Shown here one piece after another: positions 4,210 to 53,846 of a stretch of 64,000 nucleotides of DNA. A model generated the notes under the pieces. It searched no databases. It was not told where the DNA came from and saw only the letters and a list, made by a program, of their open reading frames with translations. Source of the stretch: an uncultured virus (IMG/VR IMGVR_UViG_3300044557_000566) (Duplodnaviria; Heunggongvirae; Uroviricota; Caudoviricetes). The stretch lies in IMG/VR virus record IMGVR_UViG_3300044557_000566. One strand, given 5' to 3'. A program made the position numbers and the translations under genes. Positions within the stretch are counted from its first letter, which is position 1. Every line of letters begins with the position of its first letter.

Positions 4210-4249
4210 TGAAAACATACCTCCGAGCGATCGTTTCCTGTTAGGAGTA

Positions 4250-4261: not shown

Positions 4262-4405
4262 GGATGAACCCCGCAACGCGGGGAATACGCAGACAGCCCT
4301 CGAGGGCTTCACGAAGATAGCCGGGACGAACCCCGCCTAGGCGGGGAATACCGACACCGAACCACGCAGCGACCGTTAACGGGCAGGTTCAACCCCGCAA
4401 CGCGG
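4262..4405 (-). CRISPR. Trailer-end degenerate CRISPR units (2 variant repeats and 1 truncated repeat) cut off from the main array by an insertion
   Basis: GGATGAACCCCGCAACGCGGGGAATAC (4262-4288), GGACGAACCCCGCCTAGGCGGGGAATAC (4324-4351), truncated GGTTCAACCCCGCAACGCGG (4386-4405); 62-bp period. Confidence 0.9.
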
Positions 4406-4494
4406 ATAGGGATGCTAAGGCTCGTCTTGTAGCCATCACCCTGAGCGAGGGTGAGTTCGAGAGGTAGTCCGTAAGCAGAGATAACGCAAGATTG

Positions 4495-4529
4495 AGGGCG
4501 TAACCAAGGAATAGCTTTAGTTACGCCCT
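4495..4529. terminator. Hairpin inside the array insertion
   Basis: AGGGCGTAAC (4495-4504) / GTTACGCCCT (4520-4529) perfect 10-bp inverted repeat. Confidence 0.5.
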
Positions 4530-4621
4530 TAGACGTGTTCTATGACGCCATAGATGCCCCGCTAGTCTCAGTACGTGTTTTTCCACTCACCGGGGTTTCA
4601 GGGTGTTAGAACGCAATCTAA
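4529..4621. repeat. 93-bp dispersed element, copy 1
   Basis: TTAGACGTGTTCTA...GTACGTGTTTTTCCACTCA...GTTAGAACGCAATCTAA; homologous to 17929-18021 (inverted) and 38441-38532. Confidence 0.9.
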
Positions 4622-4623
4622 AC

Positions 4624-6517
4624 GTTTGAACCTTGCAACGCGGGGAATACGGTACTCGTCCCTGATGACGAACCCTCCCCTAGTAGGTTCAACCCCGCAA
4701 CGCGGGGAATACAATGTAACGCGCCGCTTTGGTATTTACACTATATAGGTTCAACCCCGCAACGCGGGGAATACCACCATGCAATATCCGTCCTCTCACC
4801 GAACTGTAAGGTTCAACCCCGCAACGCGGGGAATACCATCGCTCTTCTCATTGAAACCATATTTTATTCCAGGTTCAACCCCGCAACGCGGGGAATACTT
4901 ATTCATATTCTGGTTTTTCTCTCGTCTATGGCGGGTTCAACCCCGCAACGCGGGGAATACTCAAGATCAAGACTGGCTGGGCTGTGAGGGTACCCAGGTT
5001 CAACCCCGCAACGCGGGGAATACTTCAGCACCCTCTCATACGTGGCAGACCCGATCGCAGGTTCAACCCCGCAACGCGGGGAATACTCTTGAGCTTTTTT
5101 ACCGTTTTTGATGACAGATACAGGTTCAACCCCGCAACGCGGGGAATACTTGCGGACATCGCTCCAAAGATGATCCAGCTTCTGGGTTCAACCCCGCAAC
5201 GCGGGGAATACCGGACTTCGCAAACGACGTAAGCGGGCCGGGGTTTAGGTTCAACCCCGCAACGCGGGGAATACAATGGAACCGCGCAGGGGCTTTATAC
5301 GACGGCCCATGGTTCAACCCCGCAACGCGGGGAATACGGAGCTGCGCTCAGATGAGGACAAAGATGTGATCAGGTTCAACCCCGCAACGCGGGGAATACG
5401 CATGGCCTGGGCAGCATCGAAGCTTGGACTAGGAGGTTCAACCCCGCAACGCGGGGAATACGTCGTTCACGAGTGCCGGCAGGATACGGTCTATCGGGTT
5501 CAACCCCGCAACGCGGGGAATACCACCAGTTGTCATGCTCGACAAGGAAGTCCTTAAGAGGTTCAACCCCGCAACGCGGGGAATACGGGGGTTCCTCTCT
5601 GGCGCGCACGCCAGCAGGTAGGGTTCAACCCCGCAACGCGGGGAATACAGTACGAGGCTTTGTCAGTTGCTATCTCAGCATCAGGTTCAACCCCGCAACG
5701 CGGGGAATACGGAGAGAATTGTAAAAGCCTATAACAAGCGCAATAGGTTCAACCCCGCAACGCGGGGAATACTCCGGCGATGGTAAAGACAGATCCCGGC
5801 TCTCGCAGGTTCAACCCCGCAACGCGGGGAATACGCTGATCCATTTGGGGTCCATCCCGCCAGTAAGTGGGTTCAACCCCGCAACGCGGGGAATACCAAG
5901 AGCTACATGAGCAGCTCAACTCATGATTCCAAGGTTCAACCCCGCAACGCGGGGAATACGCTCGATCTCCGTCCAGTAGTATCCGATGATAGCGGGTTCA
6001 ACCCCGCAACGCGGGGAATACCCTGGCTGAAGGATTCAGGATTCTGCTGGTATTCAGGTTCAACCCCGCAACGCGGGGAATACTCCTGGAATCCACTTCC
6101 TGATTCCGTCTTCTTGTAGGTTCAACCCCGCAACGCGGGGAATACCGCATGGAGCGGGAGCTGATTGCCAGCCGGAGTAGGGTTCAACCCCGCAACGCGG
6201 GGAATACATCACGAGCTTGCGGCCACATCTCTCACCGCTGTAGGTTCAACCCCGCAACGCGGGGAATACGTGGGCTGGAGTATCGTCAGATTCTCTCTAT
6301 GGAGGGTTCAACCCCGCAACGCGGGGAATACGCTCGAACTCGATTGCTGGCAGGGTTCGCTATGTAGGTTCAACCCCGCAACGCGGGGAATACTACTCAT
6401 GAAAGCACAGAACCCGCGGTTCGTGATAGGTTCAACCCCGCAACGCGGGGAATACAACAGTCACAGATCCCTCATACGCTGATACTGATAGGTTCAACCC
6501 CGCAACGCGGGGAATAC
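4624..6517 (-). CRISPR. Type I-E CRISPR array: 30 perfect repeats and 1 degenerate repeat
   Basis: Repeat GTATTCCCCGCGTTGCGGGGTTGAACC (27 nt, minus strand) starting at 4686, 4748 ... 6491, with a degenerate copy at 4624; period 62-63 bp; leader next to cas2, degenerate end toward dnaE. Confidence 0.99.
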
Positions 6518-6668: not shown

Positions 6669-7019
6669 TCATCTGGCATAACGTCTGTACTTACTAGCCT
6701 TTGACCAACCCTTCTTTTTATACGAGTTATCCTTCTGATCTTGAGTGTTCTTATGAATGATAGCTATGAATCCATCCAAATTGCATTCACGATTATATCC
6801 TCTTGAAGTAAAATCGAATCCCTGTTCCTTCGTATCGTCTGACCATATCATAATTGATGAGGAATCTTGAGAATCATTAGATTCTATTTCCGACCATATC
6901 CCTTCTCGCACTCGTTGAGTACAATCTCCTACAAATACTCCAGTATTCACCTCAAGGAGAAATCTTGACACGTATCCTCTGAGTTGAGATGGGATTTTTG
7001 ACATAACGAGGACAATCAT
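6669..7019 (-). CDS. cas2: Type I-E Cas2
   Basis: MIVLV...P..LRG..SR.LLEV..GVFVG signature; last gene of the cas operon. Confidence 0.95.
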   Translation of the reverse strand: MIVLVMSKIPSQLRGYVSRFLLEVNTGVFVGDCTQRVREGIWSEIESNDSQDSSSIMIWSDDTKEQGFDFTSRGYNRECNLDGFIAIIHKNTQDQKDNSYKKKGWSKASKYRRYAR

Positions 7020-7963
7020 GATCTTGATCCATAGTTAACACTACCAGAATATATTCCGTCAGGAGTCCATAAACCCTCATCAATCCATACAGCTCTCGAG
7101 TACATCTCTCCTTCCTCAACATGCTTTCCAGCATTGAGGAGGAGAAAAATCTTATCAATGGAATCCTTAAGAACATTATTCTTAAGGACTGATTCTCGAA
7201 TCCTCTTTCTAACCTCTCCATCAATATCATCTTGACTAATAGATTGATCGGCGCCAATATCAAAGGCTATTGGAATGGACGTCTTTGCCTTGTAAAGATC
7301 AGAAATATCAAATATGAAAGCATTGTCTCTACCATTATGAACAATTCCTAATCCAGGAGCTAGACCTATACCGAGAGTGATAGCAAGATGAATAGCGTAT
7401 AAGATCTGATTCCCGATGGTAAGAGCGTAGTTAATACGATCATTCTCTCCCTGTAGGTCTAATTCTGCACGTCTTCCACTCCAAGTAAAACCATGCTCTT
7501 TAGCAAGTCTCTTATACAGGTCAAGCATTCTACGACCCTCAATTGACCTTAACTGCGCCATTGTCAATGAGCTAACATCATCATCAAAACGCCAATTATA
7601 CATGGTCTTAGCTGCTTGAAGGCGAAGATGCTCCTGTGACACAATCTTAGCTTGCTGGATCAGCCATCTGCTCGATGAACTCAGCGCCCTACCATACGCA
7701 TAGAATCTCGTCTCATCAGAACTCATCCATACAATTGGGGTTGATCCCTGCGCTAGTAGACGAACGGCGTCTGTTGTCATGCTTACACCGGGTCCAATGA
7801 TGACAGCAGCTATAGAACACGAGGGTATGCTGATCTTCTGACCCTCCCTGTAGGCAATAATCGCACCACCAGAGACGTTAATAGTGCATCGTTCAAGATA
7901 CACGAATGACGCTCGATCTTCAAGACGAGGAAGTTCCCGTATTTCCGGCTTGCTAACCCTCAT
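7016..7963 (-). CDS. cas1: Type I-E Cas1
   Basis: DRASFVYLERC, IGPGVSMT, LRSIEGRR (E), GIVH (H), FDISDLYK (D) catalytic residues. Confidence 0.97.
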   Translation of the reverse strand: MRVSKPEIRELPRLEDRASFVYLERCTINVSGGAIIAYREGQKISIPSCSIAAVIIGPGVSMTTDAVRLLAQGSTPIVWMSSDETRFYAYGRALSSSSRWLIQQAKIVSQEHLRLQAAKTMYNWRFDDDVSSLTMAQLRSIEGRRMLDLYKRLAKEHGFTWSGRRAELDLQGENDRINYALTIGNQILYAIHLAITLGIGLAPGLGIVHNGRDNAFIFDISDLYKAKTSIPIAFDIGADQSISQDDIDGEVRKRIRESVLKNNVLKDSIDKIFLLLNAGKHVEEGEMYSRAVWIDEGLWTPDGIYSGSVNYGSRS

Positions 7964-7973
7964 AACTAGTTCC

Positions 7974-8594
7974 TTATCGTATAGGCTCTAGTATGAGCAT
8001 GCCGCATCCGTACGCTTTAGATGGCCCAAGACCATCGACCAACGACTTCTTTAAAGAATCTGCATCTTTAATAGTCACTGAACCATCGTAGGATTGCGAT
8101 CGTATCGTTATTTTATGATTTTTGTTCTTAAAGAACACAAACTTTGACTCATCATGAGTATCGCCAAGTTCCACATCGGATAATCCAGAATCCTCAAGTT
8201 TTTTAACGACCCAATTCCTAGCATTCTTACCTACAATCGGTATCTTCTTACCCCTCATACTGCGATCAATATTCTTATTCATGACCGGATTGCACGTTAG
8301 CCTGAATCCATACTTCTGTCCGTTATGAAGAGAATTGAGGAAGCCATCATACGAGGTTGATCGAACATCAGACAATGAATCGTACTCGCTACTCAAGAAC
8401 CCATAATCTGGTGCTTGCGAACTGACCACATATAATAATGTTCTATCCTCATGATCTTCCTCTCTCCATAGCGCCCTATCTTCTGATCCGTAGGGGAATC
8501 CTCTGAGGATCAGAGCATGGACGCGCTCTCTAGATTTGAGAAGGTGAATGACGCTTCTCGTATTGTGAAGGATAATTCTTGTTAACGTGATCAT
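7974..8594 (-). CDS. cas6e: Cas6e (Cse3)
   Basis: N-terminal His (RVHAL), LWR, FRLTCNP, C-terminal GLGPSKAYGCGML glycine loop. Confidence 0.93.
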   Translation of the reverse strand: MITLTRIILHNTRSVIHLLKSRERVHALILRGFPYGSEDRALWREEDHEDRTLLYVVSSQAPDYGFLSSEYDSLSDVRSTSYDGFLNSLHNGQKYGFRLTCNPVMNKNIDRSMRGKKIPIVGKNARNWVVKKLEDSGLSDVELGDTHDESKFVFFKNKNHKITIRSQSYDGSVTIKDADSLKKSLVDGLGPSKAYGCGMLILEPIR

Positions 8595-9313
8595 TCCTTA
8601 TCTCCATTCCTCTCATCAACGAAACCAAAAATGTCCTCATTTTCTGGAGAGAATTTGGATGTTGATTCTTCAACTACCGATCTTCCAGAATATTGCCTAT
8701 TCCTTATCGAATAATCAATAGGAACATCTTTGATAATGTCGCCAATTTCTCCATCTTTAGCATCTCTGATAATAATTGGCGTGTACTTATCATCCTTATC
8801 ACGGATTGACGCAACAGGTTTCTTCTTAACCTCAATTGAACCTATGACGTTCTCAATAATGTCCTCATACACCCCGTACACAAGATCCGGAGTGGTGGGA
8901 CATGACTTTCTACCGAGGAACAAGCTGTAGACGGGATGATTGATAGCATATGCATACTTATCAATCTTATCATCTTCATCTTGAAGAAATACTGTAAATA
9001 TAGAATCTTCAAAATAGTAACGATTACTTACTGCTAGAGCGTTACCAATTGATACTGACGTGCCGCCGGATCTGTCCCATCTTCGTATCGAGTGATAATC
9101 TGGCAGAACAATCCCCGGCACGTCAATGCGGACAACTATCTTCAGAGATGTAAACGCACTAAGATCAGCATCCCTCTCCATACCAAGTGCGGCCGCTAGC
9201 ATACCAATTATCCCACTCCTGCTAGGCCATCTACCAGCAGATCTGGTCTTGAACTTGGAATCAACGCTCCACGACTGCATTGGTCCGTCAAATCGTAGGA
9301 CAAGTGTCTTCAT
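8591..9313 (-). CDS. cas5e: Cas5e (CasD)
   Basis: LRFDGPMQSW, PSRSGIIGMLAAALG, RYY, LFLGRKSCP; start taken at MKTLV. Confidence 0.95.
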   Translation of the reverse strand: MKTLVLRFDGPMQSWSVDSKFKTRSAGRWPSRSGIIGMLAAALGMERDADLSAFTSLKIVVRIDVPGIVLPDYHSIRRWDRSGGTSVSIGNALAVSNRYYFEDSIFTVFLQDEDDKIDKYAYAINHPVYSLFLGRKSCPTTPDLVYGVYEDIIENVIGSIEVKKKPVASIRDKDDKYTPIIIRDAKDGEIGDIIKDVPIDYSIRNRQYSGRSVVEESTSKFSPENEDIFGFVDERNGDKE

Positions 9314-9331
9314 AGTGATCACCAGGACCTG

Positions 9332-10636
9332 TCATTGCTGATCGAATGGACTATGGAATGTGTTCTTTTCTTCAAGGGGAGAGGAACTATCAGCATGCTC
9401 TTCTCGCTCGTATCCATCGTTCACATCTTCAGAAGTCGAATTGTCATCAGGGTGATCGACCTCTGGATCATCTGAAATTTCTTGAACGGTGTCAGTCACC
9501 GTGTCTTCAACTGGTAGAACATCATTGACTACGACGCTGCTCAGATCATTGTAGGGCACATGCTCTCCGGTAGTGAATAATCCAGTAAGATCAAGAACAT
9601 ACCTCTTCCTAGGAGCCCCGTACTGGGCGTCTACTTGACGCACGTAGTCTAGCAGTCTTTCCGAGGCAGCTTCTGAAATAGACGCCGAGGACTTACTGGT
9701 AACAGGCCGCTCGAATGCTGGAGCATAAGACACTGGTCTTGAGTCACGGACTTCAATGATCACAAGTGATGGCAGGGTCTGAGCAGCGAACGTGTTCTGC
9801 TTGCCAGACGGTACTGATTCGATGAATGATCTCAGAATGGAATCAATGGCCACGCGCTCATATTCTTTATCATCGGAGAGATTCTTCTCAAGTTGTGGGA
9901 GCCCAATGTTAGCGTACCGATAGAACGTGGCGGAATCATACTCGACATTACCAATCATGCCAGCACCAGCGTTAGCCTGATCATCATCATTCTTCTCATT
10001 GCTGAGGTCATCAACAGCGGTGAAGTAATCGAACTCAGTCTGCACGGAATCAACCCCTAGAGCATGAGCAACCTGAACGGCCGCGTCAACGTTGAGGTCA
10101 GTATCATCAGCAACCATGCGCCCGAATGCTGCGAGGTCAACAGAATTAGATCCGTTGAGCTTATCCTTCATCTCCTTCTTATCATCCTTGTTGAAGTCGG
10201 TAGATGTTGGATCAAATCTACCCAAAACCACGTCAATGACATCTCTCACCTGACGCTTGCTCACGAGGATAAGATACTGCGTGCGTTCAGGATGCTTAGC
10301 GTTGAATTTGAATCCTAACGCTTCCACAATATTCTTAGACAGGTCGAGGATTGCAGAGTCTCTATCTTCCCCGATCTTATCGGGAAATACGTTATCCCTT
10401 CCTGCGAGGTCCTCAATAACGAGTCTCTGAAGATTCCTCGTCCTCAAACCGTGAACAAGTTCAGCATTGTCTCTCAAACCAAGCCAATCCCTCATGGCCT
10501 TCTTCCACGATTGTGAGGACACCCTCGCCCTCCTCACACCCCCATAGATTGCGGTCTTTGGGGATCCAGTGTCGTCTCGATTAAGATTCGATGGGGGTAC
10601 GGTCTGTATCGCGTGAATATCAATGAATGTGCTCAT
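9332..10636 (-). CDS. cas7e: Cas7e (Cse4/CasC) with acidic C-terminal extension
   Basis: HAIQTVPPSNLNRDDTGSPK, RARVSSQSWK, FGRM.A, DYFTAVDD, PSGKQNTFA. Confidence 0.97.
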   Translation of the reverse strand: MSTFIDIHAIQTVPPSNLNRDDTGSPKTAIYGGVRRARVSSQSWKKAMRDWLGLRDNAELVHGLRTRNLQRLVIEDLAGRDNVFPDKIGEDRDSAILDLSKNIVEALGFKFNAKHPERTQYLILVSKRQVRDVIDVVLGRFDPTSTDFNKDDKKEMKDKLNGSNSVDLAAFGRMVADDTDLNVDAAVQVAHALGVDSVQTEFDYFTAVDDLSNEKNDDDQANAGAGMIGNVEYDSATFYRYANIGLPQLEKNLSDDKEYERVAIDSILRSFIESVPSGKQNTFAAQTLPSLVIIEVRDSRPVSYAPAFERPVTSKSSASISEAASERLLDYVRQVDAQYGAPRKRYVLDLTGLFTTGEHVPYNDLSSVVVNDVLPVEDTVTDTVQEISDDPEVDHPDDNSTSEDVNDGYEREEHADSSSPLEEKNTFHSPFDQQ

Positions 10637-11229
10637 TCTTGTTCTTCCTTTTCATTGTTGTTTGTTTGGGTTTCAGCTATTCTCTGGTTAGAATAGAAGT
10701 CTTTCATCCATCGTATGATCACGTTATCGGCATAATCATCGAATTGGAGTCGGTAAAGATCGTCAGTGAACCTTCCGTAATCAAATTTTGATGCCCCGTT
10801 GACCTTTGGTGCGAGCCGGTTGAGGAGGTATGATCGCTGACTGAATGTTGAAGATGCTGCAACCTTACGGATCATGGCGAGTCCATCATTATGGGAGTCT
10901 CCCTCAACAGTATTCTGATAATGGAGGAGCGCTTCACCGAATGGAATGTTCTCGTCATGTGGCCGAGGATCTTTATTAGACCACGCCATGGAGTAAATAT
11001 GGACGCCTAAGGCGACTGCTATCTCATCCCTCGTCACGAGGTTGCCTTTGGGTTCTTCCCATCCGATTGATGTGAGTGCATCAATGATTGGTATCCACTG
11101 TGAAACAGACGAGGACAGGTCCGACTCATCCATTTTTCTCCACTTCCCCACCTCAGCGCTATCGCCACCCTGAAGATGATATATGATTCTTTCTGCTGCA
11201 CGCCCGGCAGTTGTTCTTGCGTTACTCAT
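10633..11229 (-). CDS. cse2: Cas11/Cse2 small subunit
   Basis: Lies between cas8e and cas7; C-terminal DY..F..DL..LQ....V..RW..DFY motif. Confidence 0.85.
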   Translation of the reverse strand: MSNARTTAGRAAERIIYHLQGGDSAEVGKWRKMDESDLSSSVSQWIPIIDALTSIGWEEPKGNLVTRDEIAVALGVHIYSMAWSNKDPRPHDENIPFGEALLHYQNTVEGDSHNDGLAMIRKVAASSTFSQRSYLLNRLAPKVNGASKFDYGRFTDDLYRLQFDDYADNVIIRWMKDFYSNQRIAETQTNNNEKEEQE

Positions 11230-12836
11230 AGATTGTTCAACCCCTTACGCAGCCACATTGAAGCGGTTGCTATTGATTTCACATGATTCTCCTTGCCCAC
11301 GGTTACGCCAATGATTGCGGTTGTTGGGGCAAGATCGGCGTACTGATTAGACAGGTCAATAGTCTCCTTCTTTAGAATTCCCTTCCATGATTCCATAGGG
11401 TCTCTATCGTCATCATTGAAATTAGAAAGCCATTGATAGTATTTAGATTGCAGATGGGCATAGAAGACTCCGAATTGAGCTCCTCCTTCTTCTTTGGTGA
11501 GCCCCTCAGTGCGCCCGCTCGCGTAGGCAACGTCTCTGGTGAATCCCACGTATATCTTAGCGACCTTATCAGCTAGGGAAACAGCCTCAATAGCTGTTCT
11601 TGCTGATTGGGCGTCATCAAGGATCTTTGATGGCATTGGTATAGAATCATTGAGAATATCAGTAACAACTGAGGACATGCTAACATCATATCTTGTTGTT
11701 ACCGCGTTAGCGACTATCTTATCCGATGGAGAAAGAATTCTTTTCCGTATGAGTTCATGCTCCCATTCAAGTACCATTGGCCTCTTGTTGACAGCGCTAT
11801 TGTCATGATCATCGGCAAGAAGAGCTTGCATTCCACGCCATAGCGATCTCTCGGGAGTCCGTATTACCGGTTTCCATATCTTCAGGTCCTTATGATCGGG
11901 GTCATCTCTTAACGCCCATGAGCACATCTGTTCATACGATCTTCCATTCACCAAGTCAACAGAATCGCCGGCAGTAATAATACATTGGGTAACCTGATTA
12001 TTATTGCTCACTAGTTTTACTCTTCTAGAGGATACGGTAAGATTCTCAATAACTCCTTTAGGTCTAAGCTTATGATTCTTGTCTGCGCCACCTACCTTCA
12101 ATGGATCTTTCTCCCATATTGGTCGATCATTTGGACCACCTACAACCCGATCCGGCTCTAATTGCTGCAATTGTTCTGAGTCGATGGCAGGAGCGCATAG
12201 TAATAACGTCTTTTTAAGACTTGATCCTGTCGGTATGATCCCCGTCATTTGACTCAATTGAGCCAGGGTTGGATACACTCTCCCAACAGCCCCCTTAGTA
12301 GTTCCCTGTCGAGGATCTCCCACGCAGGCCACATGAGCTCCGCATGGATCATACCCAATAGATGATAGCAGGTAAATAGCTGCCTCATAATACTCAACAG
12401 ATTGCAGTGAGGATAATGTTCTAGTATAATAAACCGAAGTTGGCTTCACATCGGCTACTATCTTGTTTAGATTAAAATAATGCCCATCTTTTGTTCTGAG
12501 GTCAGCAGCCTGCATGAACGGTTGTATGGAATGGATAAGCCAGAACCTGTCATGCCACTTGTCAGCATATGCTCTTATCTGATCCTCGGGGAATCCCTCA
12601 TTCCAATAATCCTCCCAATTCTCCATTGTAAGATCAAGACTAGAGTACAGGAATGCTATCAAGAGTCTAAGAACTGCGAAATTCTCTGATGGAAGCTCGC
12701 AGTCAAGGCTCTTATAATTATTAGAATTCAGGATAGCATCAGTAATCGATACTCGTTCTGATTGATTGTCATTATTAATGACGGGTATCCAGGGTTCATC
12801 TAGCAGATTGAACTCAGGATTGACTTCATCGGTCAC
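11226..12836 (-). CDS. cas8e: Cas8e/Cse1 large subunit
   Basis: FNLLDEPWIPV N-terminus, RF.L....PFMQ, R.LWRG; operon position. Confidence 0.92.
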   Translation of the reverse strand: MTDEVNPEFNLLDEPWIPVINNDNQSERVSITDAILNSNNYKSLDCELPSENFAVLRLLIAFLYSSLDLTMENWEDYWNEGFPEDQIRAYADKWHDRFWLIHSIQPFMQAADLRTKDGHYFNLNKIVADVKPTSVYYTRTLSSLQSVEYYEAAIYLLSSIGYDPCGAHVACVGDPRQGTTKGAVGRVYPTLAQLSQMTGIIPTGSSLKKTLLLCAPAIDSEQLQQLEPDRVVGGPNDRPIWEKDPLKVGGADKNHKLRPKGVIENLTVSSRRVKLVSNNNQVTQCIITAGDSVDLVNGRSYEQMCSWALRDDPDHKDLKIWKPVIRTPERSLWRGMQALLADDHDNSAVNKRPMVLEWEHELIRKRILSPSDKIVANAVTTRYDVSMSSVVTDILNDSIPMPSKILDDAQSARTAIEAVSLADKVAKIYVGFTRDVAYASGRTEGLTKEEGGAQFGVFYAHLQSKYYQWLSNFNDDDRDPMESWKGILKKETIDLSNQYADLAPTTAIIGVTVGKENHVKSIATASMWLRKGLNNL

Positions 12837-15640
12837 TTAGACTCCTTCTTAGAATAATCTAAACCTATCGTCCTATCATAATAGATATCATAGCCCATCA
12901 ACTCGACGTGCCGATCCTCATCAAAGTATAGTACAAGCTCGCCGTTCAACGGGCATTTACTGCTCTGCCATGATTCTACGTAATTGTTTTCAAGCGCGTC
13001 TAAGGTCTTGTCAATATTCCATGGCTTTGATATTGGGCCGGGGATTCCAATCTTCTGGAGGAGAAGATCTTGAGCATCGTGATAATCCGGAGTGTTAGTC
13101 ATATTCAATAGCTCATTACCATACAACGTGCTCACAGAACCATCCTCATGTTTCATGAGGGAGATCGCGTCTAACCCTGACTCAGAGTCCCTAACGGCTG
13201 CGCGGGCCGCCTTATCCTTATTATTGCTCATAAGCTTGTCATTGGAAGCCATCATAGTTCGGCTAGACCACGGGCCCCTAAGAAGGTACGCTCTTGCCTT
13301 ATTCTGTTCGGTGGCCACGTCGTCAGTGAGTTTCTTATCAGCCTCCTCTAAGGGACCAGACCAGGAGTCGGGCGCTATTAATGATGGAGAATCAGATTCC
13401 GCGACAAGTTCTGGAATGTCGTCGGGAATATGTAGAGTGGTTCTACCTAGTAGCACGGCTTGAGCTCGAATGAGTTTTGATGCTGAATAAATCATGGAAT
13501 GAATCTTGTCAGCATACGGGGGATTCTCCTCGTCTGTTGACCATCCTCTAATGTAAAGAACGGGATTCTTAACCTTATCTGGTCGTGTTCTTCCGGAATG
13601 ACGATGGAGTCTTCCCGACCTTTGAAGAATGAGATCAATGGGAGCAAGATCTGTTATCATTACGTCAAAGTCAATATCAAGACTCTGTTCTATAACCTGT
13701 GTGGCAATCACGACGAGACGCTTCGGACGATCGCCATGCTTTCCCAGTTTACTGACCACCTCGTCTTCTATTTTCTTACGATCAAGAGGCATGAATCTTG
13801 AATGGAATAAGATTACCTCATCTTGCTTCCATCCATTATCTAGAAAGCGTCTGTACTCCTCCTGTGCTTCGCGTACAGTGTTGTGAATAATAGCACCGCA
13901 CCCACCGTCTGATAGGAGGTTGCTCATCATGTTGAATGGAGCGTTAAGATCGTCAAATGGAAGAGGTTTGATGGCAATGTCAGCATGGCGTGAATCTTGA
14001 TTCGGGTGAAGGATCTTCAATCCATCAGAGTTATAGGTTGATATGATCGGATAATCTCTCGTATTATCAGTAATAGTGATATTATTATTATCTTTGCTCA
14101 TCCCCCGTGCATATGCTGTTACCAGTGCGGATCTTCTACTTGGGCTCAGGGTGGCGCTCATGAGGATGACCGGGCAGTGGAGCGCGGCCAGCCATTCAAG
14201 CGCTCTCTCCATGTAGACTTCCATGTAATCATCTGAAGAGTGGACTTCATCTACAATGACGATCTTACCGGCTAATCCAGCATGGCGAAGCATGACGTGC
14301 TTTTGCTGAAGCGCAGCCATTAGGATCTGGTCAATAGTACTAACCACGAAACTCGACAGTATTCCCTGCTTACTTCCACTGAACCAGTCTGGAGATCTTA
14401 TAGAGTCCTTCTCACCGTATGTTCTTATATTCCACTCATTCTTCCTCATCTCCTGGACATCACTGTTAAGACTCGCCTGTCCGTGGAGGAGTCGAAGAGA
14501 CTCCTCACCATTAGTCGCCTTCTCAATCCAAGTCTTCAATCGCGTGAAGATTCCATTGGCCGTAGCTTGCGTGGGAAGCGCAAAGACGAGTCCCCCAGAC
14601 CCACGTTTCCTTGCAATTCGTTCTGCTGCCAGCAACGCGGTTTCAGTCTTACCAATGCCCATTGGAGCCTCAATGATCATGAGACCAGCATCGTTATGCT
14701 CGGCATAATCTAGTGCTGACTCTTGAAGATTGTTAATGATAGCGTTCTTGGGAACATCGAACCTGTCATGGAATAGAGTGTTGTGGTCAGCATTCTCGAA
14801 GGGGTTATTCAGTGTAATAGTCCATGGAGATGGCAGTGCAAGATCAGCCCATGCGTTTAACAGCCGCTCGTCCTCATCTGTCAATGACCTGCCATTCATA
14901 GACAAATGAAAGAGATTTTGGTTAGAAGCCATCCAGTCAGCAACGATGACCATTCCCGTAAGCACGGATTGTACCCCCAGCGGAATCTCCTTGACTCCCC
15001 TGAATAGATCATCGGGTGTGGTATCACCGATGATGTCATTCCATCTTTCGTCTAGGATGTTAGTCCTTGCCTTCACCCATTGATCCTTATTACCGTATGC
15101 CTTAAGACCCTCACTCCTGGTAATGCCCTCAAGGATATCTCCCTCAACGTTCAGAGTGTTCTCAGCCCATACTCCATGATGTCCGCCAATAACAGTCGCC
15201 AGATCGGTAGCAATCCTACCGTTTACCTTATGATCTAGCAGCCATTGATCCATAGCGATGTACCCGGTGCTCTCATGTCTGCAGCACTTGTTCTTCGCGT
15301 CTTCAGGTATGCGATCATGAATAGCGTACTCGACCCGCTCAACGAGATCGGGTCTAGTTGATCTCACCTGTCCCTCGAATCCAGGGGAACATTTGCCGAC
15401 ATCGTGGATGCCGGCAAGGAACACGTAGATCTTTCTTGCCGTCTCGTCATTCACGAGATATGATGATAGGAATGTTCTCAATTGTCTAGGCCAGAACCTA
15501 TTCCAAAGAATGTCGGCCATACCTGCTGTATCTTCAAGATGCTGCGTGAGGCTCAGCCATGTCACGTCATCTGTACGTTGCCCGTCTTTACCGAATTGAG
15601 ACGCCGTCTTAGCCCATACGCTATCTGATACAGAACTCAT
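12833..15640 (-). CDS. cas3: Cas3 HD nuclease-helicase
   Basis: WAK, HLED, HDVGK, HHG, ADW (HD domain); EAPMGIGKT, DEVH, SAT, QRSGRLHRH (SF2 helicase). Confidence 0.97.
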   Translation of the reverse strand: MSSVSDSVWAKTASQFGKDGQRTDDVTWLSLTQHLEDTAGMADILWNRFWPRQLRTFLSSYLVNDETARKIYVFLAGIHDVGKCSPGFEGQVRSTRPDLVERVEYAIHDRIPEDAKNKCCRHESTGYIAMDQWLLDHKVNGRIATDLATVIGGHHGVWAENTLNVEGDILEGITRSEGLKAYGNKDQWVKARTNILDERWNDIIGDTTPDDLFRGVKEIPLGVQSVLTGMVIVADWMASNQNLFHLSMNGRSLTDEDERLLNAWADLALPSPWTITLNNPFENADHNTLFHDRFDVPKNAIINNLQESALDYAEHNDAGLMIIEAPMGIGKTETALLAAERIARKRGSGGLVFALPTQATANGIFTRLKTWIEKATNGEESLRLLHGQASLNSDVQEMRKNEWNIRTYGEKDSIRSPDWFSGSKQGILSSFVVSTIDQILMAALQQKHVMLRHAGLAGKIVIVDEVHSSDDYMEVYMERALEWLAALHCPVILMSATLSPSRRSALVTAYARGMSKDNNNITITDNTRDYPIISTYNSDGLKILHPNQDSRHADIAIKPLPFDDLNAPFNMMSNLLSDGGCGAIIHNTVREAQEEYRRFLDNGWKQDEVILFHSRFMPLDRKKIEDEVVSKLGKHGDRPKRLVVIATQVIEQSLDIDFDVMITDLAPIDLILQRSGRLHRHSGRTRPDKVKNPVLYIRGWSTDEENPPYADKIHSMIYSASKLIRAQAVLLGRTTLHIPDDIPELVAESDSPSLIAPDSWSGPLEEADKKLTDDVATEQNKARAYLLRGPWSSRTMMASNDKLMSNNKDKAARAAVRDSESGLDAISLMKHEDGSVSTLYGNELLNMTNTPDYHDAQDLLLQKIGIPGPISKPWNIDKTLDALENNYVESWQSSKCPLNGELVLYFDEDRHVELMGYDIYYDRTIGLDYSKKESK

Positions 15641-16976: not shown

Positions 16977-17876
16977 ATGGTTTCTATCAAACGTTTCTTA
17001 CATAATCTGGTTAAGTCTCCCACTGTATATGATCTTATCGTCAATACGAAGATGGACTCCATACAAGACAGCCAGATAGAACGTCTCCAAGGAATACATA
17101 AGAACGTGCAGGGCCCGGATGGATCTGTCAATAATCATAGTATGATTCCTAATTCTGAAGTTGGCGTAACGTCACAGAACAATGTAATGAATGGCCCAAT
17201 TTCCTATAAGATACTTGTCTATGAAGCGAGACCGCTTAGCGGCATGATGATAGGGCAAGAGTTCATAGCTGACATTATAAGGAAGCCCGTGTTCATGAGA
17301 AGCTCATTGACTGGTAGTACTTGGTCTGCTTCTCAGAATGGAGGAATGGCCATAGGATACAATGGTATTCCTATAGGTGCTACGTTCAATGATGATCTTA
17401 TCAATTTTTTGAATTATTATCGTGCTACTAGAATCATGGCTAAGATGGTCGGTTGGTATGATGAGGAGAATGGAATACCAGAGATTAGAATACAAGCTCC
17501 ATCTTCTCGGTTCAGTGAGTATGATCAAATAACATCTGGAATGATGCATGTTGATCTATATGAAGCTAAAGACATGATGATTATAGGTTTCGCCTATTAC
17601 AAGCCTATACCAATATTAGAATCACTGACTAATAGCAATCATTACGCTAGAATTAATGTGAATATCATATACCTTCCGAATAAGTTGGGATCTAAAGCAA
17701 AGCCAACATTATCTATTCAATATGATGGTGGTGAGCTTATGAGATTCACAGCTCGAAGCGGTAAATACAAAGAACTAGGCGAGCATACTGGACCACATAT
17801 CATGCTTGTACAAAGGAATGGGGGATCTCCGAATAGGCCCGAGGGATTCTTCTATCGTGTCGTAATACTGAAATAG
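16977..17876 (+). CDS. Hypothetical protein (AT-rich, divergent from the cas operon)
   Basis: 299-aa ORF with AAGAAGG RBS; no confident family. Confidence 0.75.
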   Translation: MVSIKRFLHNLVKSPTVYDLIVNTKMDSIQDSQIERLQGIHKNVQGPDGSVNNHSMIPNSEVGVTSQNNVMNGPISYKILVYEARPLSGMMIGQEFIADIIRKPVFMRSSLTGSTWSASQNGGMAIGYNGIPIGATFNDDLINFLNYYRATRIMAKMVGWYDEENGIPEIRIQAPSSRFSEYDQITSGMMHVDLYEAKDMMIIGFAYYKPIPILESLTNSNHYARINVNIIYLPNKLGSKAKPTLSIQYDGGELMRFTARSGKYKELGEHTGPHIMLVQRNGGSPNRPEGFFYRVVILK

Positions 17877-17928
17877 AGTTGGAAACCCTCACACTTCTCT
17901 TTATGGAAAATCACGCTTTTATAGGTGC

Positions 17929-24315: not shown

Positions 24316-26166
24316 TCACTCATAACCATTCTTCCTCCTGAGGATGCGAGCACGATTCTTCTTCACGTACTGGTAGCATGTCTCCTCATCTCGAAACATT
24401 TCCTCCAGGGATACGTCCCTGCCAATACGGGCTTCTATTCTTGACCTCGCGGTCTGTGATGATGCTACGGACAACGCGACGTAAAGATCCTTCACCCTAG
24501 CCTCATTGTCCATAACGTCCTGTCTTGCAAGCAGTGCTCGCTTCTTCACAGCGTTATCAGCCTTCTTCGCCTCAGGGTCGATGAGGAACGCCTCATCTGG
24601 CATGTCATCACCCTCCATGATCACATCGTCAATAGACTTGCATCGGCTGAGTGCAACGTAGCCCAATCCCTTCTGGAAGCATGTGGACAGGTTAATGACC
24701 GCACCGTCTAGGGTCTGTCCCTGCGACTTGTGAACGGTGATAGCCCATGCTAGTCGGAGTGGGACGTACCCGACCGTCGCGTCAACGATCTCGACCTCCT
24801 TGAGCGTAGGCTCACCATTGTCATCAACGTCTTTCCTCACCTCGATATGGGTCTTTTTAGCATGAGCATACCCGATGGTCACGGTTCGCATGTCCCTACT
24901 CATCTCTTCGGTTATAGTGCTCGTGTCAATGACCTGCATGTCTGAGGGAAGGCTGTTCATCCTGACCTTGATGATCGGAATCTTACGTCCTAGACCATCG
25001 GGCTCTTCACCAAGCTCAACAATCTCTCCCATCGACCCGTTCACGTACCCGTTCACGACTCCATTCAACGTGAGCATGACCACAGCACCAGTCTTCAACT
25101 CAAGGGGCTTTAACTTCCCCGAGTTGATGATCTCCTTGCAGTCATCTGGATCCCCAGATCTCTTCAACGGGTAGAAGTGATGCATCCCCGGCAACGCATC
25201 TAACTTGGATTGATTGTAATTGTCAACGCTCCGGTTGAACGTCCTTAGTCTCGTGTAGACCTTCCCCTTATCGGGGGTGATGTGGAGTCTTGGATAGATG
25301 AGCGACTTCAACTCGTCTATATTCTTGCCGTCACGGATACCGTTCAGGAGATCATTCAGCCTGGAGTCAGATGATCTCCTCGTACGGTCAAGGTAGCAGA
25401 ATCGGAATCCTCCAGATGAGAAGATCTTGTGTCCGTTCACGTCACGAGCATGGAAGCAGTATCCACCGTCAACGAGCTTGCCATCACTATCCAGCTGGTT
25501 CGTGTTCACTGGTGGAAGCTGTAGGAAATCTCCGACGAGCACGACCTGCAATCCACCGAACGGGACGTCACTCTTCCCCTTGGCCTTCCTGCACGCCCTG
25601 TCAAGATTTGATAGGAAGTACGCTGGAAGCATACTGACCTCATCAACGATAAGCACGTCAGTGTCACGGATCCTCTTCTTAGCATTAAGCCATACCCGTT
25701 TCTCGCGATTATGAAGCTTGTCCTCATCGAACTCATCAACGCTGATCCCAAGACCAGACCACGAGTGGATAGTCCTCCCGAAGATGAGAGCCGCGGCTGC
25801 TCCAGTGGACGCTGTGACAGCAACCTCGAGATGCCTCCCCTCTGATTCCAGTCTCCCTTGGAACCCGTGGATGATCTCCTGGTACTTGTCAATCACCCAT
25901 GACTTCCCAGCACCAGCGCTACCGCACAAGATCACATTGTCACCCCGTAGCAGCCAGTACAATGCTTCCATCTGGCTCGTGTACTTGCTCTTTGAGAGTT
26001 CGTCTTCAATGTTGAACTCTGGAACGTGATGATGGAGACCTTTAGGGTATGATGGGTCCTCAGGAATCTGTCCGTTCATGCTTGCGAAAATATCGTCTGC
26101 CGAGGAGTCCACTGTGCTCGTCTTATCGCTATCCGCATTCGTCTTCCCGGTTCTTTCGTTGCCCAT
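24316..26166 (-). CDS. Pif1/RecD-like SF1B DNA helicase
   Basis: GSAGAGKS, TIHSWSG, DEVSM, PFGG.Q...GDF.QLPPV, AWAITVHKSQGQT, YVALSR; start set at ATG 26166 (AGAAGGGA RBS). Confidence 0.92.
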   Translation of the reverse strand: MGNERTGKTNADSDKTSTVDSSADDIFASMNGQIPEDPSYPKGLHHHVPEFNIEDELSKSKYTSQMEALYWLLRGDNVILCGSAGAGKSWVIDKYQEIIHGFQGRLESEGRHLEVAVTASTGAAAALIFGRTIHSWSGLGISVDEFDEDKLHNREKRVWLNAKKRIRDTDVLIVDEVSMLPAYFLSNLDRACRKAKGKSDVPFGGLQVVLVGDFLQLPPVNTNQLDSDGKLVDGGYCFHARDVNGHKIFSSGGFRFCYLDRTRRSSDSRLNDLLNGIRDGKNIDELKSLIYPRLHITPDKGKVYTRLRTFNRSVDNYNQSKLDALPGMHHFYPLKRSGDPDDCKEIINSGKLKPLELKTGAVVMLTLNGVVNGYVNGSMGEIVELGEEPDGLGRKIPIIKVRMNSLPSDMQVIDTSTITEEMSRDMRTVTIGYAHAKKTHIEVRKDVDDNGEPTLKEVEIVDATVGYVPLRLAWAITVHKSQGQTLDGAVINLSTCFQKGLGYVALSRCKSIDDVIMEGDDMPDEAFLIDPEAKKADNAVKKRALLARQDVMDNEARVKDLYVALSVASSQTARSRIEARIGRDVSLEEMFRDEETCYQYVKKNRARILRRKNGYE

Positions 26167-26217
26167 GATTCCCTTCTTGTATGAAATCCATACAGATCTT
26201 ATTATCCCCGAGAACGG

Positions 26218-26303
26218 GGATGAATCCCGCATAAGCGGGGAATACCAAAATTTTATAGTACCAACCATCTTCATGGGGATGGCCCCGCATAGGCGGTGTA
26301 TAC
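26218..26303 (-). CRISPR. Orphan mini-array: two degenerate I-E-like repeats with one spacer of about 31 nt
   Basis: GGATGAATCCCGCATAAGCGGGGAATAC (26218-26245) and GGATGGCCCCGCATAGGCGGTGTATAC (26277-26303) resemble the trailer repeats at 4262 and 4324. Confidence 0.75.
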
Positions 26304-26454
26304 TGGGGGTCTCCCCGGGATCCCAGTGCCCTGAGATTATCAATAGCACGAATCGAGCATGTTCTTCATAAACCGTTATATATTCATGATATGCATCTAG
26401 CAATCATTCATATTTAGTTCGGTAAAAACCTATGCTTAGTATAGCATGCGTAGG

Positions 26455-27690
26455 CTAAACCAAGCTAACGTCTAGTCTATCTAATAGGAACTCGGGGCTT
26501 ATCATAGATGACGGCTTCATCATTGCCCTACCGAATCCAAGTGACTGGACACCCACGCTGAACACGGTGATGACATCAGGCCTGGGATTCACTAGGGATC
26601 TTCCAATGTCAGATCCAGCCATCCACCTGTCCTCGGGTCTGATCGCCCCGGCGATCACTCTTGTCTGCAGATTGGGCAACAGGGCCATGAGATTGGAAGA
26701 TCCCCCGTCTGCTACGAGAAGTACTCTTAACCCATGAGCGTTAGCTATGGCTAGAAGGTTCAGTAGGTGCGACATGAACCTTCTAGATTTGCCTTCTAGC
26801 GTTGAGAATGCGTCATAATCTGAGTTGATGATGCTGACGGCCTTATCAATATCAGCAGGCCATCCCGATGGAGTCACGTTAAGACCAGTGCCCGGTCCTG
26901 CCTTAAGCCAGAATGGCGCTATGCTTCTAGCAATGTGATCGTATTTGATCCTTCCAGCGTAATCATTAAGATCTTCATCTGCGCCCTGTGATAAGAGCAA
27001 TCCTACTGACCACGCTATGGAATCATTCAGATCATGTGATATAGATTCGAGGGTGATACTACTCGCACTGTTGGAAGATTGCCCGTGAATGATGACCAAT
27101 GCTAACAGTAATGCGCTTTTGCTGGCATCGTCATTGACCCCCAGACCATCAATGTACGAGTTGACCTTACCATACTCTTCATCTGAAAGCGCTGGTCTTA
27201 CAAGATTATTGGCCTTATCATAAAGCCCATCATGTGATTCCCCATTAGACTCTGCACTTGTTAACGGATCACGGCTAGAGTCTTTACGGAGGACTGACTC
27301 CCAGTCCTCAATGACGAATAGATCTTTGACGTAATCATCTGCTCCAGCATCATCAGGTTCAGACATGATTCCAGATGAAATTGAAGACAATATAGAATCG
27401 TGGAGCACCTTGATTCCATCATCCAGATCGTATGACGATTGATCATCTGATGGGCTTTTTATGCCGTTATTGGATAGTACGCGAACCTTACCGTTAAGAT
27501 CTTCTAGAGCCTTAACGATCTTGTTGCCCACCTCAATTCTATCAGATCCAGTGATAAGAATATTACTCTCACCATCAAGACCAACCACCCATTTGAGATT
27601 GTTCTGCGTGAAGCCGAGCCCATGCTTGACGCCACTGCCCTTCCTATCCTTAGGGGGCTTGTTTTCCTTCTTCTTCCCGAATCCGAACAT
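26455..27690 (-). CDS. Hypothetical protein, possibly a degenerate FtsK-like P-loop domain
   Basis: LG......W......NILITG and LFVIED resemble Walker A/B contexts, but GKS/T is missing. Confidence 0.5.
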   Translation of the reverse strand: MFGFGKKKENKPPKDRKGSGVKHGLGFTQNNLKWVVGLDGESNILITGSDRIEVGNKIVKALEDLNGKVRVLSNNGIKSPSDDQSSYDLDDGIKVLHDSILSSISSGIMSEPDDAGADDYVKDLFVIEDWESVLRKDSSRDPLTSAESNGESHDGLYDKANNLVRPALSDEEYGKVNSYIDGLGVNDDASKSALLLALVIIHGQSSNSASSITLESISHDLNDSIAWSVGLLLSQGADEDLNDYAGRIKYDHIARSIAPFWLKAGPGTGLNVTPSGWPADIDKAVSIINSDYDAFSTLEGKSRRFMSHLLNLLAIANAHGLRVLLVADGGSSNLMALLPNLQTRVIAGAIRPEDRWMAGSDIGRSLVNPRPDVITVFSVGVQSLGFGRAMMKPSSMISPEFLLDRLDVSLV

Positions 27691-33083: not shown

Positions 33084-34310
33084 TCAGTACTCATCCACGT
33101 CCACATTCTCATGGACTTCATCGTCTGGCTCTGGAGCAGAGTCTAGCTCATCTAGCTCTTCAACCTCATCATCAACGATTGGCTTAGCATTCGGATCTGG
33201 TAGAAGGCTCCTCGGAACGACAGCCTTAGAACCCTCGGCAAAGCCTGGTATGGTTTTTCTCTGTTCCATAATGTACTCGCGCATGAGAGCATCATCAATG
33301 TTCTGCCAGTGGGCTTCCTTATCCTTATGAGTGGTCACGCCCTCCAGGTACGGTATGAATGTCCCATAAGGGTTCATAGATTCGGGCATAAGGTCATCAA
33401 TACGCTCATAACCAGGCTTCCTTGCAAGACGCTGCCTGAACTTCGAGTAGTCAACGAGGTGATGGATTCTCCCGAATTTGAGGATCGCGAACGTGGTTTC
33501 AGGATATGACTTCACGAGATACTTGACCTTACGCAGAGTCCCCTCCTGATGGAACGCTTCGGTCATTCCTCCCTTCTGTGATTGCGTGTCGGGGGTCTGA
33601 TAGGCGAGTATCTTACTAGACACGTTGACGAACCCCCTCTTCTCGTAGTCTAGGGAGATCGTCACGTCATCATTGAATCTCGATCTCCACGGAATCTTTG
33701 GTCCATCTGTACGGAATCGTATGCAAGTGTACGTCTTGCAGTTGACGGAGAACTGCGAGTTCTTCCTATGATTCTGCACGAGACCCTGCTTGTCGATCTC
33801 AGCGAGACCAATGTTGTCAAACTTGTCGAGGAATCGTTGGTACAAGCAGAAGATGTCATTGAGGCTCAGTCTCTTCTCCCTAACGCCCCCGTTCGCGATG
33901 TCCTTCGTCCAAATGTTCTTCTGGAAGAAGAATGCGTCCACGGTGAAGCTCTGAATGTCATCATCCATCATCCAGTAGTGCTTGAGACCCATATCGATGG
34001 CCAGTTGGTGGAGAGCGTTCCTGGCTGGCCCTGGACCAGTGGTGAGCCCCGGCTGCCATCCAAGATCATCACAATAGTCGAATCCATCGGGGTGATTAGC
34101 ATCCCTAGGACTCTTGAACCTCTCAAGATCAAATGCGTACACGTGAGACTCCGGCTCGTACACGCCATCATCGCGGAGTCTCCTCACGTAAGACCAGTAG
34201 TCATCAGGCTCAACAATATAGACCCAGTTGTGGATGTCAAATGCTTCCAGGTTACGATGGGTGTTGCAGTTAGACCCCCTGCCCTTACTCGGTATGAAGG
34301 TCGTATCCAT
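33084..34310 (-). CDS. TAGT/GREB1-like GT-A glycosyltransferase
   Basis: FIPSKGR, VEP, GPARN, YWMMDDDI (DxD), NDD, KGGMTE, YP, GRIHH.VDY. Confidence 0.75.
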   Translation of the reverse strand: MDTTFIPSKGRGSNCNTHRNLEAFDIHNWVYIVEPDDYWSYVRRLRDDGVYEPESHVYAFDLERFKSPRDANHPDGFDYCDDLGWQPGLTTGPGPARNALHQLAIDMGLKHYWMMDDDIQSFTVDAFFFQKNIWTKDIANGGVREKRLSLNDIFCLYQRFLDKFDNIGLAEIDKQGLVQNHRKNSQFSVNCKTYTCIRFRTDGPKIPWRSRFNDDVTISLDYEKRGFVNVSSKILAYQTPDTQSQKGGMTEAFHQEGTLRKVKYLVKSYPETTFAILKFGRIHHLVDYSKFRQRLARKPGYERIDDLMPESMNPYGTFIPYLEGVTTHKDKEAHWQNIDDALMREYIMEQRKTIPGFAEGSKAVVPRSLLPDPNAKPIVDDEVEELDELDSAPEPDDEVHENVDVDEY

Positions 34311-38440: not shown

Positions 38441-38532
38441 TTAGACGTGTTCTAACGCGCCATAGACGCTCTCATTTCGCATGAGTAAAAAAACACGTAC
38501 CAGTAATGGTCTCTCGTTAGAACGCAATCTAA
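38441..38532. repeat. 92-bp dispersed element, copy 3 (core inverted relative to arms)
   Basis: Arms TTAGACGTGTTCTA / GTTAGAACGCAATCTAA as in copy 1; core TGAGTAAAAAAACACGTAC is the reverse complement of the copy-1 core (17/19). Confidence 0.88.
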
Positions 38533-42248: not shown

Positions 42249-42390
42249 CGAACTCCCTCCTTAATACGACTCATTGCTCTTTCAATTCCATGATAACATG
42301 AGATGGCGACAAGTGAACGTAATCCCGTCCATTTAAAGATCATAATAAAAGGGGCGCGGAGCCCCCTTGTCATGTCACCCCTGATAGGAA

Positions 42391-53768: not shown

Positions 53769-53846
53769 AACGATGCAATTATAACACAAGATATCAACAA
53801 GAACAACGAGGACGGGTGGAGATCACGCTATCCATAACGTCTTTGA

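Follow-up and report, generated by a model that had tools for sequence, protein, structure and literature searches.

Orphan CRISPR repeats and mini-arrays are common, and most of them are taken as debris, guides or decoys. Viral mini-CRISPR arrays and solitary repeat units were reportedly the subject of work by Medvedeva et al. in 2019 and Faure et al. in 2019, and Qi et al. are said to have engineered Cas6/Csy4 hairpins into the untranslated regions of mRNAs in 2012. According to the available excerpts of Shmakov et al. 2023 (bioRxiv 10.1101/2023.03.03.530964), many stand-alone repeats are judged to be degraded and non-functional, and the regulatory mini-arrays include CreA of the CreTA system and a type I-E mini-array aimed at the cas8e promoter. 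Here we describe a degenerate two-repeat mini-array, built from the type I-E repeat of the very element that carries it, which lies in the leader of a helicase gene in the same orientation as the main array of that element.

The window, by which we mean the whole stretch of 64,000 nucleotides that was analyzed, corresponds to bases 237869-301868 of a 419,707-bp IMG/VR virus record. When PHROGs were run on 78 large reading frames, there were RIIA-like, UvsX-like, terminase-large-fragment, minor-tail and virion matches along with a T4-like replication set, and because of these matches the record, which could have been either phage or plasmid, is treated here as a huge phage. None of the five Pfam families Terminase_6N, TerL_ATPase, Phage_capsid, Phage_sheath_1 and VirB4 gave a match. 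A TET-associated glycosyltransferase domain at window 33084-34310 (Pfam TAGT, 2.3e-21) hints that the phage carries hypermodified DNA bases. A type I-E cas operon is complete in the window according to Pfam matches (cas3, cse1, cse2, cas7e, cas5e, cas6e, cas1 and cas2), and it precedes the main array on the minus strand. Cas6e (window 7974-8594) can be aligned to solved CasE/Cse3 structures over its C-terminal loop, while the N-terminal histidine falls outside the alignment made by the tool. The features on which the rest of this account depends are the following, in window coordinates:

4262 to 6517, minus strand: main type I-E array, with 30 perfect and 1 near-perfect 27-nt repeats (GTATTCCCCGCGTTGCGGGGTTGAACC), 0 being expected by chance
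6669 to 15640, minus strand: type I-E cas operon, by Pfam matches
24316 to 26166, minus strand: Pif1/Dda-like SF1 helicase gene of 616 aa (Pfam PIF1 2.5e-25; PHROG Dda-like helicase 7e-53)
26204 to 26221, minus strand: 7-bp hairpin ATCCCCG-TTCT-CGGGGAT, which adjoins RepB and overlaps its 3' flank
26216 to 26245, minus strand: RepB, the downstream repeat, well preserved (GTATTCCCCGCTTATGCGGGATTCATCCCC), 3 edits from the array variants and found by the covariance model
26246 to 26274, minus strand: spacer-like stretch, 29 nt long (31 nt on a 27-nt count of the repeat), which holds TGGTACTAT at 26263-26255
26275 to 26303, minus strand: RepA, the upstream repeat, strongly degenerate (GTATACACCGCCTATGCGGGGCCATCCCC), 5 edits from an array variant
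26304 to 26328, minus strand: hairpin0 (CACTGGG...CCCAGT), directly before RepA and conserved in a paralogous cassette
26329 to 26382, minus strand: conserved upstream block (TATATAAC...ATGAAGAACATGCTCGAT...TGATAAT), identical to the paralogue in 45/55 columns

The edit distances in this list are measured against six repeat variants, taken only from leader-bearing arrays, and a control set of twenty Markov-2 random genomes, each 419,707 bases long and matched in trinucleotide composition, had no match at 5 edits or fewer. With a covariance model made from 4 array repeats, RepB scored 27.0 bits (E 2e-5 in 57.4 kb; E 1.5e-4 genome-wide), and nothing else in the window beyond the array was significant. 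RepA reached only 8.4 bits, with an E of 8.3 and a rank of 11 among 12. Taken alone, RepA fails the covariance model; it is credible only because it stands one period (58 nt) upstream of RepB, on the same strand, and resembles the variant of the repeat that has a 4-nt loop. In the arrays the corresponding period is 62-63 nt. There are thus two cognate-like repeats in the same orientation, one spacer length apart, in a genome that holds cognate cas genes and a cognate array. The canonical array leader is absent upstream of the mini-array, the upstream block being unlike the array leaders, and a search of 25900-26600 against Rfam gave no credible family (best E 1.5). A preliminary description of this stretch had read two degenerate I-E repeats in array orientation around a spacer of about 31 nt; the sequence itself, the edit distances and the absence of matches in all twenty random genomes bear this out, and the positions it gave were correct throughout. 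Its distance to the main array, put at about 20 kb, is 19.7 kb, and the two lie on the same strand.

The phage has further arrays, of 4 and 22 repeats, near 331-333 kb. Moreover, the "direct terminal repeat" of the record (genome 1-89 and 419619-419707) is 89 nt long and consists of a repeat, a spacer and a repeat of a CRISPR array, from which it follows that the assembly closes inside an array and that the two end arrays are one. One leader is common to three arrays and to a solitary repeat at genome 17723, where, in the region 17600-17900 (L011), the canonical array leader stands before one repeat that has no spacer, as in an "empty" array. The old end of the main array is broken by some 210 nt of non-repeat DNA (4413-4623). 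Within this insert lies one copy of a family of 23-nt direct repeats (GACGTGTTCTA..GCC.TAGA), whose copies in the window are at 4532-4554, 38444-38466 and 56522-56544, and similar words occur near the leader of another array.

RepB belongs to a variant class of the repeat, recognized by a 4-nt loop (TTAT in RepB) and the flank TTCATCC. Several other orphan repeats are of the same class, and so are the last two repeats of both the main array and the 4-repeat array. Since the class stands at the trailer ends of two leader-bearing arrays, it looks like an older version of the repeat. In the main array, the last of these variant repeats ends about 40 nt before the ATG of dnaE at 4218, and no promoter was seen between this terminal repeat and the dnaE start. 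Patterns of the variant repeat found nothing in IMG/VR, and when 185,579 species, each represented by one genome, were scanned for the exact pattern, the variant repeat turned up in 1 genome only, as a single copy.

Besides the helicase locus, the genome has about ten orphan loci of one or two degenerate repeats each; genome-wide, the covariance model reports nine orphan repeats at E<0.05, RepB among them. The orphans are intergenic, and mostly stand just upstream of genes and co-oriented with them. The genes that follow orphan or terminal repeats are dnaE, the helicase, a polynucleotide-kinase-like gene, the small subunit of ribonucleotide reductase (RNR), a 58-aa membrane peptide, and genes without known function. 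In the case of the 58-aa peptide (L007:2676-2852), which has a hydrophobic N-terminus, one repeat lies between a phage promoter motif and the ribosome-binding site; the same region (genome 63700-65700) contains four or five clustered repeat-like elements on both strands. At one other locus an unrelated hairpin takes the place of the second repeat. When seven of the other orphans were folded, five had weak stems (J, G1, H, C and F, at -1.8 to -5.2 kcal/mol) and two were intermediate (D2 at -8.6 and G2 at -8.0), the canonical repeat standing at -11.0. A separate two-repeat unit at genome 314272-314361 (L010:773-862, minus strand), with the same three changes in both repeats and a 36-nt spacer, sits in a tRNA cluster between the genes for tRNA-Ile and tRNA-Thr. 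A hand count over 13 orphan repeats, from loci that are not independent of one another, gave changes at 17 of 169 positions in the 3' half (GCGGGG plus flank) and at 30 of 143 in the 5' half. There are also two half-repeats in which only the 3' part is left, near genome 64210 and at 418399-418426.

The region upstream of the helicase has a paralogue at genome 397190-397430 (L005:1190-1430, minus strand), to which blastn aligns 65 nt at 84.6% identity with an E of 2.9e-5 (alignment A1). The two cassettes are about 230 nt each and share one order of parts: conserved upstream block, hairpin0, RepA, spacer, RepB and leader. The second cassette precedes an unrelated gene of 348 aa with a weak DUF4238 match. 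Compared cassette against cassette, the identical columns among those aligned are 45/55 in the upstream block, 18/27 in hairpin0, 22/31 in RepA, 18/42 in the spacer, 25/30 in RepB and 23/53 in the leader, that is, 71-83% in the repeat-like blocks as against 43% in spacer and leader. This better preservation hints at constraint on the repeats. Genome-wide, the upstream block has only two copies, those of the two cassettes, and its 18-nt core matched six viral contigs, in each case within unrelated coding sequence. In the paralogue, the stem of hairpin0 has 12 pairs and a single unpaired base on either side. The repeats have decayed unevenly: the helicase cassette keeps the gene-proximal hairpin (-10.4) and has lost the distal one, whereas the paralogue shows the reverse (-12.3 distal, -4.6 proximal). 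The upstream block of both cassettes also contains a reading frame of 9 codons, MKNMLD(S/A)(C/H)Y-stop, at window 26369-26340 (minus strand) and genome 397363-397392, for which no clear ribosome-binding site could be read by eye.

A phage promoter motif, TGTTATAATGGAATCGT, recurs almost perfectly in the spacer of the paralogue. This motif family, an extended -10 element with a conserved start region, has 23 copies in the genome with at most 3 mismatches, mostly 35-60 nt before start codons; those within the window are at 42282-42298 and 53770-53786 (minus strand). At three other loci the motif comes before or after repeats. The helicase spacer has its counterpart in the 3' part of the paralogue's spacer and is without the 13 nt that carry the -10 element there, so TGGTACTAT is not the promoter of this family; precisely the part with the promoter motif seems to have dropped out of the helicase copy. 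Since the spacers of the two cassettes look homologous, they were not acquired independently.

Where the helicase gene begins matters for whether any of this DNA is coding. Its start is the ATG at 26166: nine homologues begin at or after this codon (alignment A2), and therefore the open frame that runs on through the mini-array is not coding. RepB accordingly ends about 50 nt before the true start, just as the preliminary description had placed it, and on its 3' side come the 7-bp hairpin, an AU-rich hairpin, the ribosome-binding site and the ATG. An upstream coding extension, from TTG 26403, ATG 26274 or ATG 26232, was considered and rejected, its frame being unused by the homologues and one strain variant having single-base indels there. 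Public gene calls do place the helicase start inside the mini-array, either at an ATG in the spacer (652 aa) or at an ATG in the RepB loop (638 aa), while the 616-aa form is the one backed by homologues. The locus thus misleads gene callers.

In predicted folds the canonical hairpin of RepB is its best structure, with 5 bp and -10.4 kcal/mol (z -2.9) compared with -11.0 for the canonical repeat; for RepA the canonical hairpin is not the best fold. The bottom base pair of the RepB stem, next to the expected cut site, is lost in the present phage by a change of G to A. A relative at 98% identity has Gly where the present phage has Asp, in agreement with an intact G-C pair at the stem's base, and this position is polymorphic among strains of at least 98% identity. 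The hairpin at 26204-26221 had been taken to overlap the downstream repeat and to compete with it. It is present, and it does overlap, though only the 3' flank of RepB; it does not compete with the repeat stem, for the predicted fold contains both hairpins at once. In the paralogous cassette this hairpin is not conserved. As a whole, the helicase leader is more structured than its shuffles (z -2.9).

Consensus scans of 26100-26500 returned 0 promoters and 0 sites for an intrinsic terminator (a GC-rich hairpin with a T run). The extended -10 element that was earlier proposed within the spacer does not hold up, as TGGTACTAT (26263-26255) matches the hexamer at 4/6 positions, the scan finds no promoter, and the part of the spacer that bears the motif in the paralogue is missing here. 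When a promoter was sought within 250 bp upstream, -10-like sequences could be seen by eye at 26341-26336 (GATAAT) and 26446-26438 (TGCTATACT), and the upstream block may hold a promoter at the former. One contig from an RNA library, which may contain DNA, spans 26055-26326, from the ATG through RepA, and has no differences. Its end would fall where a start after GATAAT is expected, a placement that we infer, as contigs cannot show ends.

The mini-array is present in several strains of at least 98% identity; at 45-53% identity, no repeats stood upstream of the orthologous helicases among the matches listed (L098, L099 and L101). A search with the hairpin core through 160 fetched loci gave 10 matches, which are 5 palindromic sites read on both strands, and none is repeat-like. 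A protein search shows that relatives of the helicase at 58-70% identity exist (P0003-P0007), encoded on contigs of 350-520 kb. The helicase protein alone found nothing in IMG/VR, while a profile of 10 homologues had its best match there at 39% identity, and at 53% among the metagenome-contig matches listed. Among GenBank phages the helicase reaches at most 34% protein identity, and the leader has no DNA match.

The spacer itself finds no target. Against the phage genome it has no match longer than 11 nt, and of five 11-mers four are inside genes; the remaining one is intergenic and falls on the spacer's middle rather than on its seed. No PAM-adjacent or intergenic seed match (5+5+2 nt, with positions 6 and 12 free) and no intergenic match of at least 12 nt were found in the 420-kb genome, and viral contigs of IMG/VR searched with every sixth base free gave no match. 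With 31 nt, the spacer is 4-5 nt too short beside the 35-36 nt of the 75 canonical spacers, by the same count. These canonical spacers, compared with the phage genome and the fetched loci, have only short matches themselves, the longest a 17-mer, and no full-length protospacer there; those of the main array have no match in GenBank phages. In regulatory crRNA-like elements, the upstream repeat is well kept and the downstream repeat degraded. Here the order is reversed (RepA with 5 edits and 8.4 bits, RepB with 3 edits and 27 bits), and RepA, which would supply the 5' handle, is the more decayed and has its flank shifted by one base.

How, then, is the locus best explained? We hold with roughly even confidence that it is a decayed mini-array with a single spacer, built from an older form of the I-E repeat that the phage itself carries, now part of a duplicated and structured 5' leader, in which RepB is possibly still a substrate of Cas6e. 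On this reading the mini-array would no longer be an independent CRISPR unit, having become embedded in a non-coding cassette of about 230 nt, of which there are two diverged copies. The mRNA of the helicase, or a transcript reading through from upstream, would begin before RepA, and hairpin0, RepA, the spacer and RepB would all be in its leader, with one more hairpin ahead of the ribosome-binding site. RepA is probably too decayed for Cas6e to bind or cut. RepB, with a predicted hairpin that is near-canonical apart from its bottom pair, is a plausible substrate, and since it still forms a stem-loop of the Cas6e type, Cas6e may bind or cut the leader at that point as a by-product of the descent from an array. 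In the best reading of the sequence the element yields no working guide RNA, and we saw no evidence for a dedicated role as regulator of the helicase. Some observations sit less easily with a decayed relic: the repeat blocks are 71-83% kept between the cassettes while spacer and leader are at 43%, a close relative keeps a perfect RepB stem, and the ten or so orphans, mostly co-oriented before genes of which several serve replication or nucleotide metabolism, show more order than simple debris would. Two of these observations, the better-kept repeat blocks and the remnants before replication genes, hint at a candidate that we consider rather unlikely though worth keeping in mind, namely dedicated gating by Cas6e or Cascade, a general form of the idea in the preliminary description, in which the repeats would have been domesticated as processing or insulator sites in mRNA leaders. 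A cut by Cas6e at RepB might leave a 5' end with a crRNA-type handle, or bound Cas protein might block or protect the ribosome-binding site; either would tie the expression of a replication gene to that of cas, and the same logic would apply to dnaE and the other orphan loci. The good predicted Cas6e-type hairpin of RepB 50 nt before the ATG is consistent with gating, as are the complete cas operon with the conserved C-terminal loop of its Cas6e, the terminal repeat of the main array some 40 nt before dnaE with no promoter seen between them, the repeat between promoter motif and ribosome-binding site of the 58-aa peptide gene, and repeat blocks that are better kept than the spacer. Yet the two cassettes differ in whether the repeat next to the gene or the one farther away is intact, RepB is without the base pair next to the expected cut site, 5/7 of the other orphans folded have weak stems, no repeats stand before the orthologous helicases at 45-53% identity among the matches listed, and co-orientation is expected anyway in this genome, whose genes run in long same-strand blocks. 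In the partial texts that our literature search surfaced, the only Cas6/Csy4 hairpins in untranslated regions were engineered ones, and so, as far as those texts go, a natural case would be new. Extended to the whole phage, the idea becomes one of Cas6e-dependent mRNA punctuation before dnaE, the Pif1-like helicase, the PNK-like gene and the RNR small subunit, with arrays and their remnants lying within operons, where the phage's Cas6e or parts of Cascade would trim, insulate or gate the leaders; in this general form we regard it as unlikely.

That the leader is ordinary, Cas-independent RNA structure, such as a 5' stabilizer, an attenuator or the 3'-end hairpin of the upstream gene, would agree with its structured fold (z -2.9), with the best conservation being in hairpin0 and in the upstream block with its small reading frame, and with the unrelated hairpin that replaces a second repeat at another locus; but the consensus scan gave no terminator-like site, nothing here separates this explanation from the relic reading, and we give it a small probability. 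Another explanation is a working crRNA-like guide, whether a regulatory crlRNA of the CreA or cas-promoter type, for which the preliminary description had named CreA as a precedent, or an anti-phage mini-array whose crRNA, excised between RepA and RepB, would be loaded into Cascade. The two-repeat-plus-spacer architecture is that found in the available excerpts of Shmakov et al. 2023 (bioRxiv 10.1101/2023.03.03.530964), and cognate Cas proteins are encoded on the same genome. Nevertheless, the upstream repeat that should form the 5' handle is decayed and its flank shifted by one base, the spacer is 4-5 nt shorter than canonical ones and looks homologous between the paralogous cassettes rather than independently acquired, and the element lies 20 kb from the cas locus. 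The phage genome offers no PAM-adjacent or intergenic seed match and none above 11 nt, and IMG/VR offers none, all of which makes a guide very improbable. We think least of an RNA decoy of the Racr type, in which repeat-like RNAs would mimic host I-E repeats and soak up Cas6e or Cas7e. Viral solitary repeats in such a role do exist, two of them for type I-E in the accessible part of Camara-Wilpert et al. 2023 (PMC10651486), and the orphan repeats are of a variant class distinct from the current repeat of the phage. Against this, the phage has a complete I-E system of its own, the variant class is the old end of its own arrays, the exact-pattern scan of 185,579 species (one genome each) gave 1 single-copy match, and the element stands in a gene leader instead of forming a small stand-alone RNA gene.

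The locus offers a test bed, in that a single 420-kb phage has a complete type I-E system alongside several arrays and some ten remnants, and two of the remnants belong to one leader cassette that is duplicated in front of different genes. Cutting or binding of such leaders by Cas6e would mean that CRISPR repeats are put to natural use in processing mRNA, outside immunity; failing that, the locus is a record of array decay and of the incorporation of arrays into ordinary gene leaders. Should the broader punctuation idea be true, the repeats would be the natural counterpart of the engineered Csy4/Cas6 insulators and would link phage CRISPR to the control of replication genes.

Among known systems, the viral mini-CRISPR arrays and solitary repeat units, as the excerpts of Shmakov et al. 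2023 present them, are similar in that a single spacer stands between two repeat-like sequences, in the genome of a virus and apart from a long array. The present element differs in that the phage has its own complete cas operon with cas1-cas2 and both repeats are degenerate; no target was found in other viruses, and the unit is in the leader of a replication gene, within a duplicated cassette. The regulatory mini-arrays (CreA and the one aimed at the cas8e promoter) likewise have, in the same excerpts, degenerate repeats flanking a spacer of 20-60 bp and no adaptation-competent leader. The features of CreA-type elements given there are a well-kept upstream repeat, a PAM-flanked seed match to a nearby promoter, and a place in or beside the cas locus, and here none of the three is found. 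The Racrs of Camara-Wilpert et al. 2023 (PMC10651486) resemble it as phage-encoded repeat mimics and, in the accessible part of that paper, are transcribed from a nearby promoter; they mimic host repeats, and the solitary units are described there as not cas-associated, whereas here the repeats are variants of the phage's own and the genome carries cas3 to cas2. With the engineered Cas6/Csy4 hairpins in untranslated regions (Borchardt et al. 2015, PMC4604432, as far as the available text describes them), it would share a Cas6-type hairpin between promoter and ribosome-binding site that defines a processed 5' end; those hairpins are synthetic, whereas here the role would be a natural and, for now, hypothetical one. 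The degenerate terminal repeats and decayed remnants of arrays share with it the variant class found at the trailer ends of the phage's own arrays, the uneven decay and the absence of a target. Unlike such remnants, however, this one has been copied along with its flanks to a place before a second gene, and its repeats have been better kept than its spacer.
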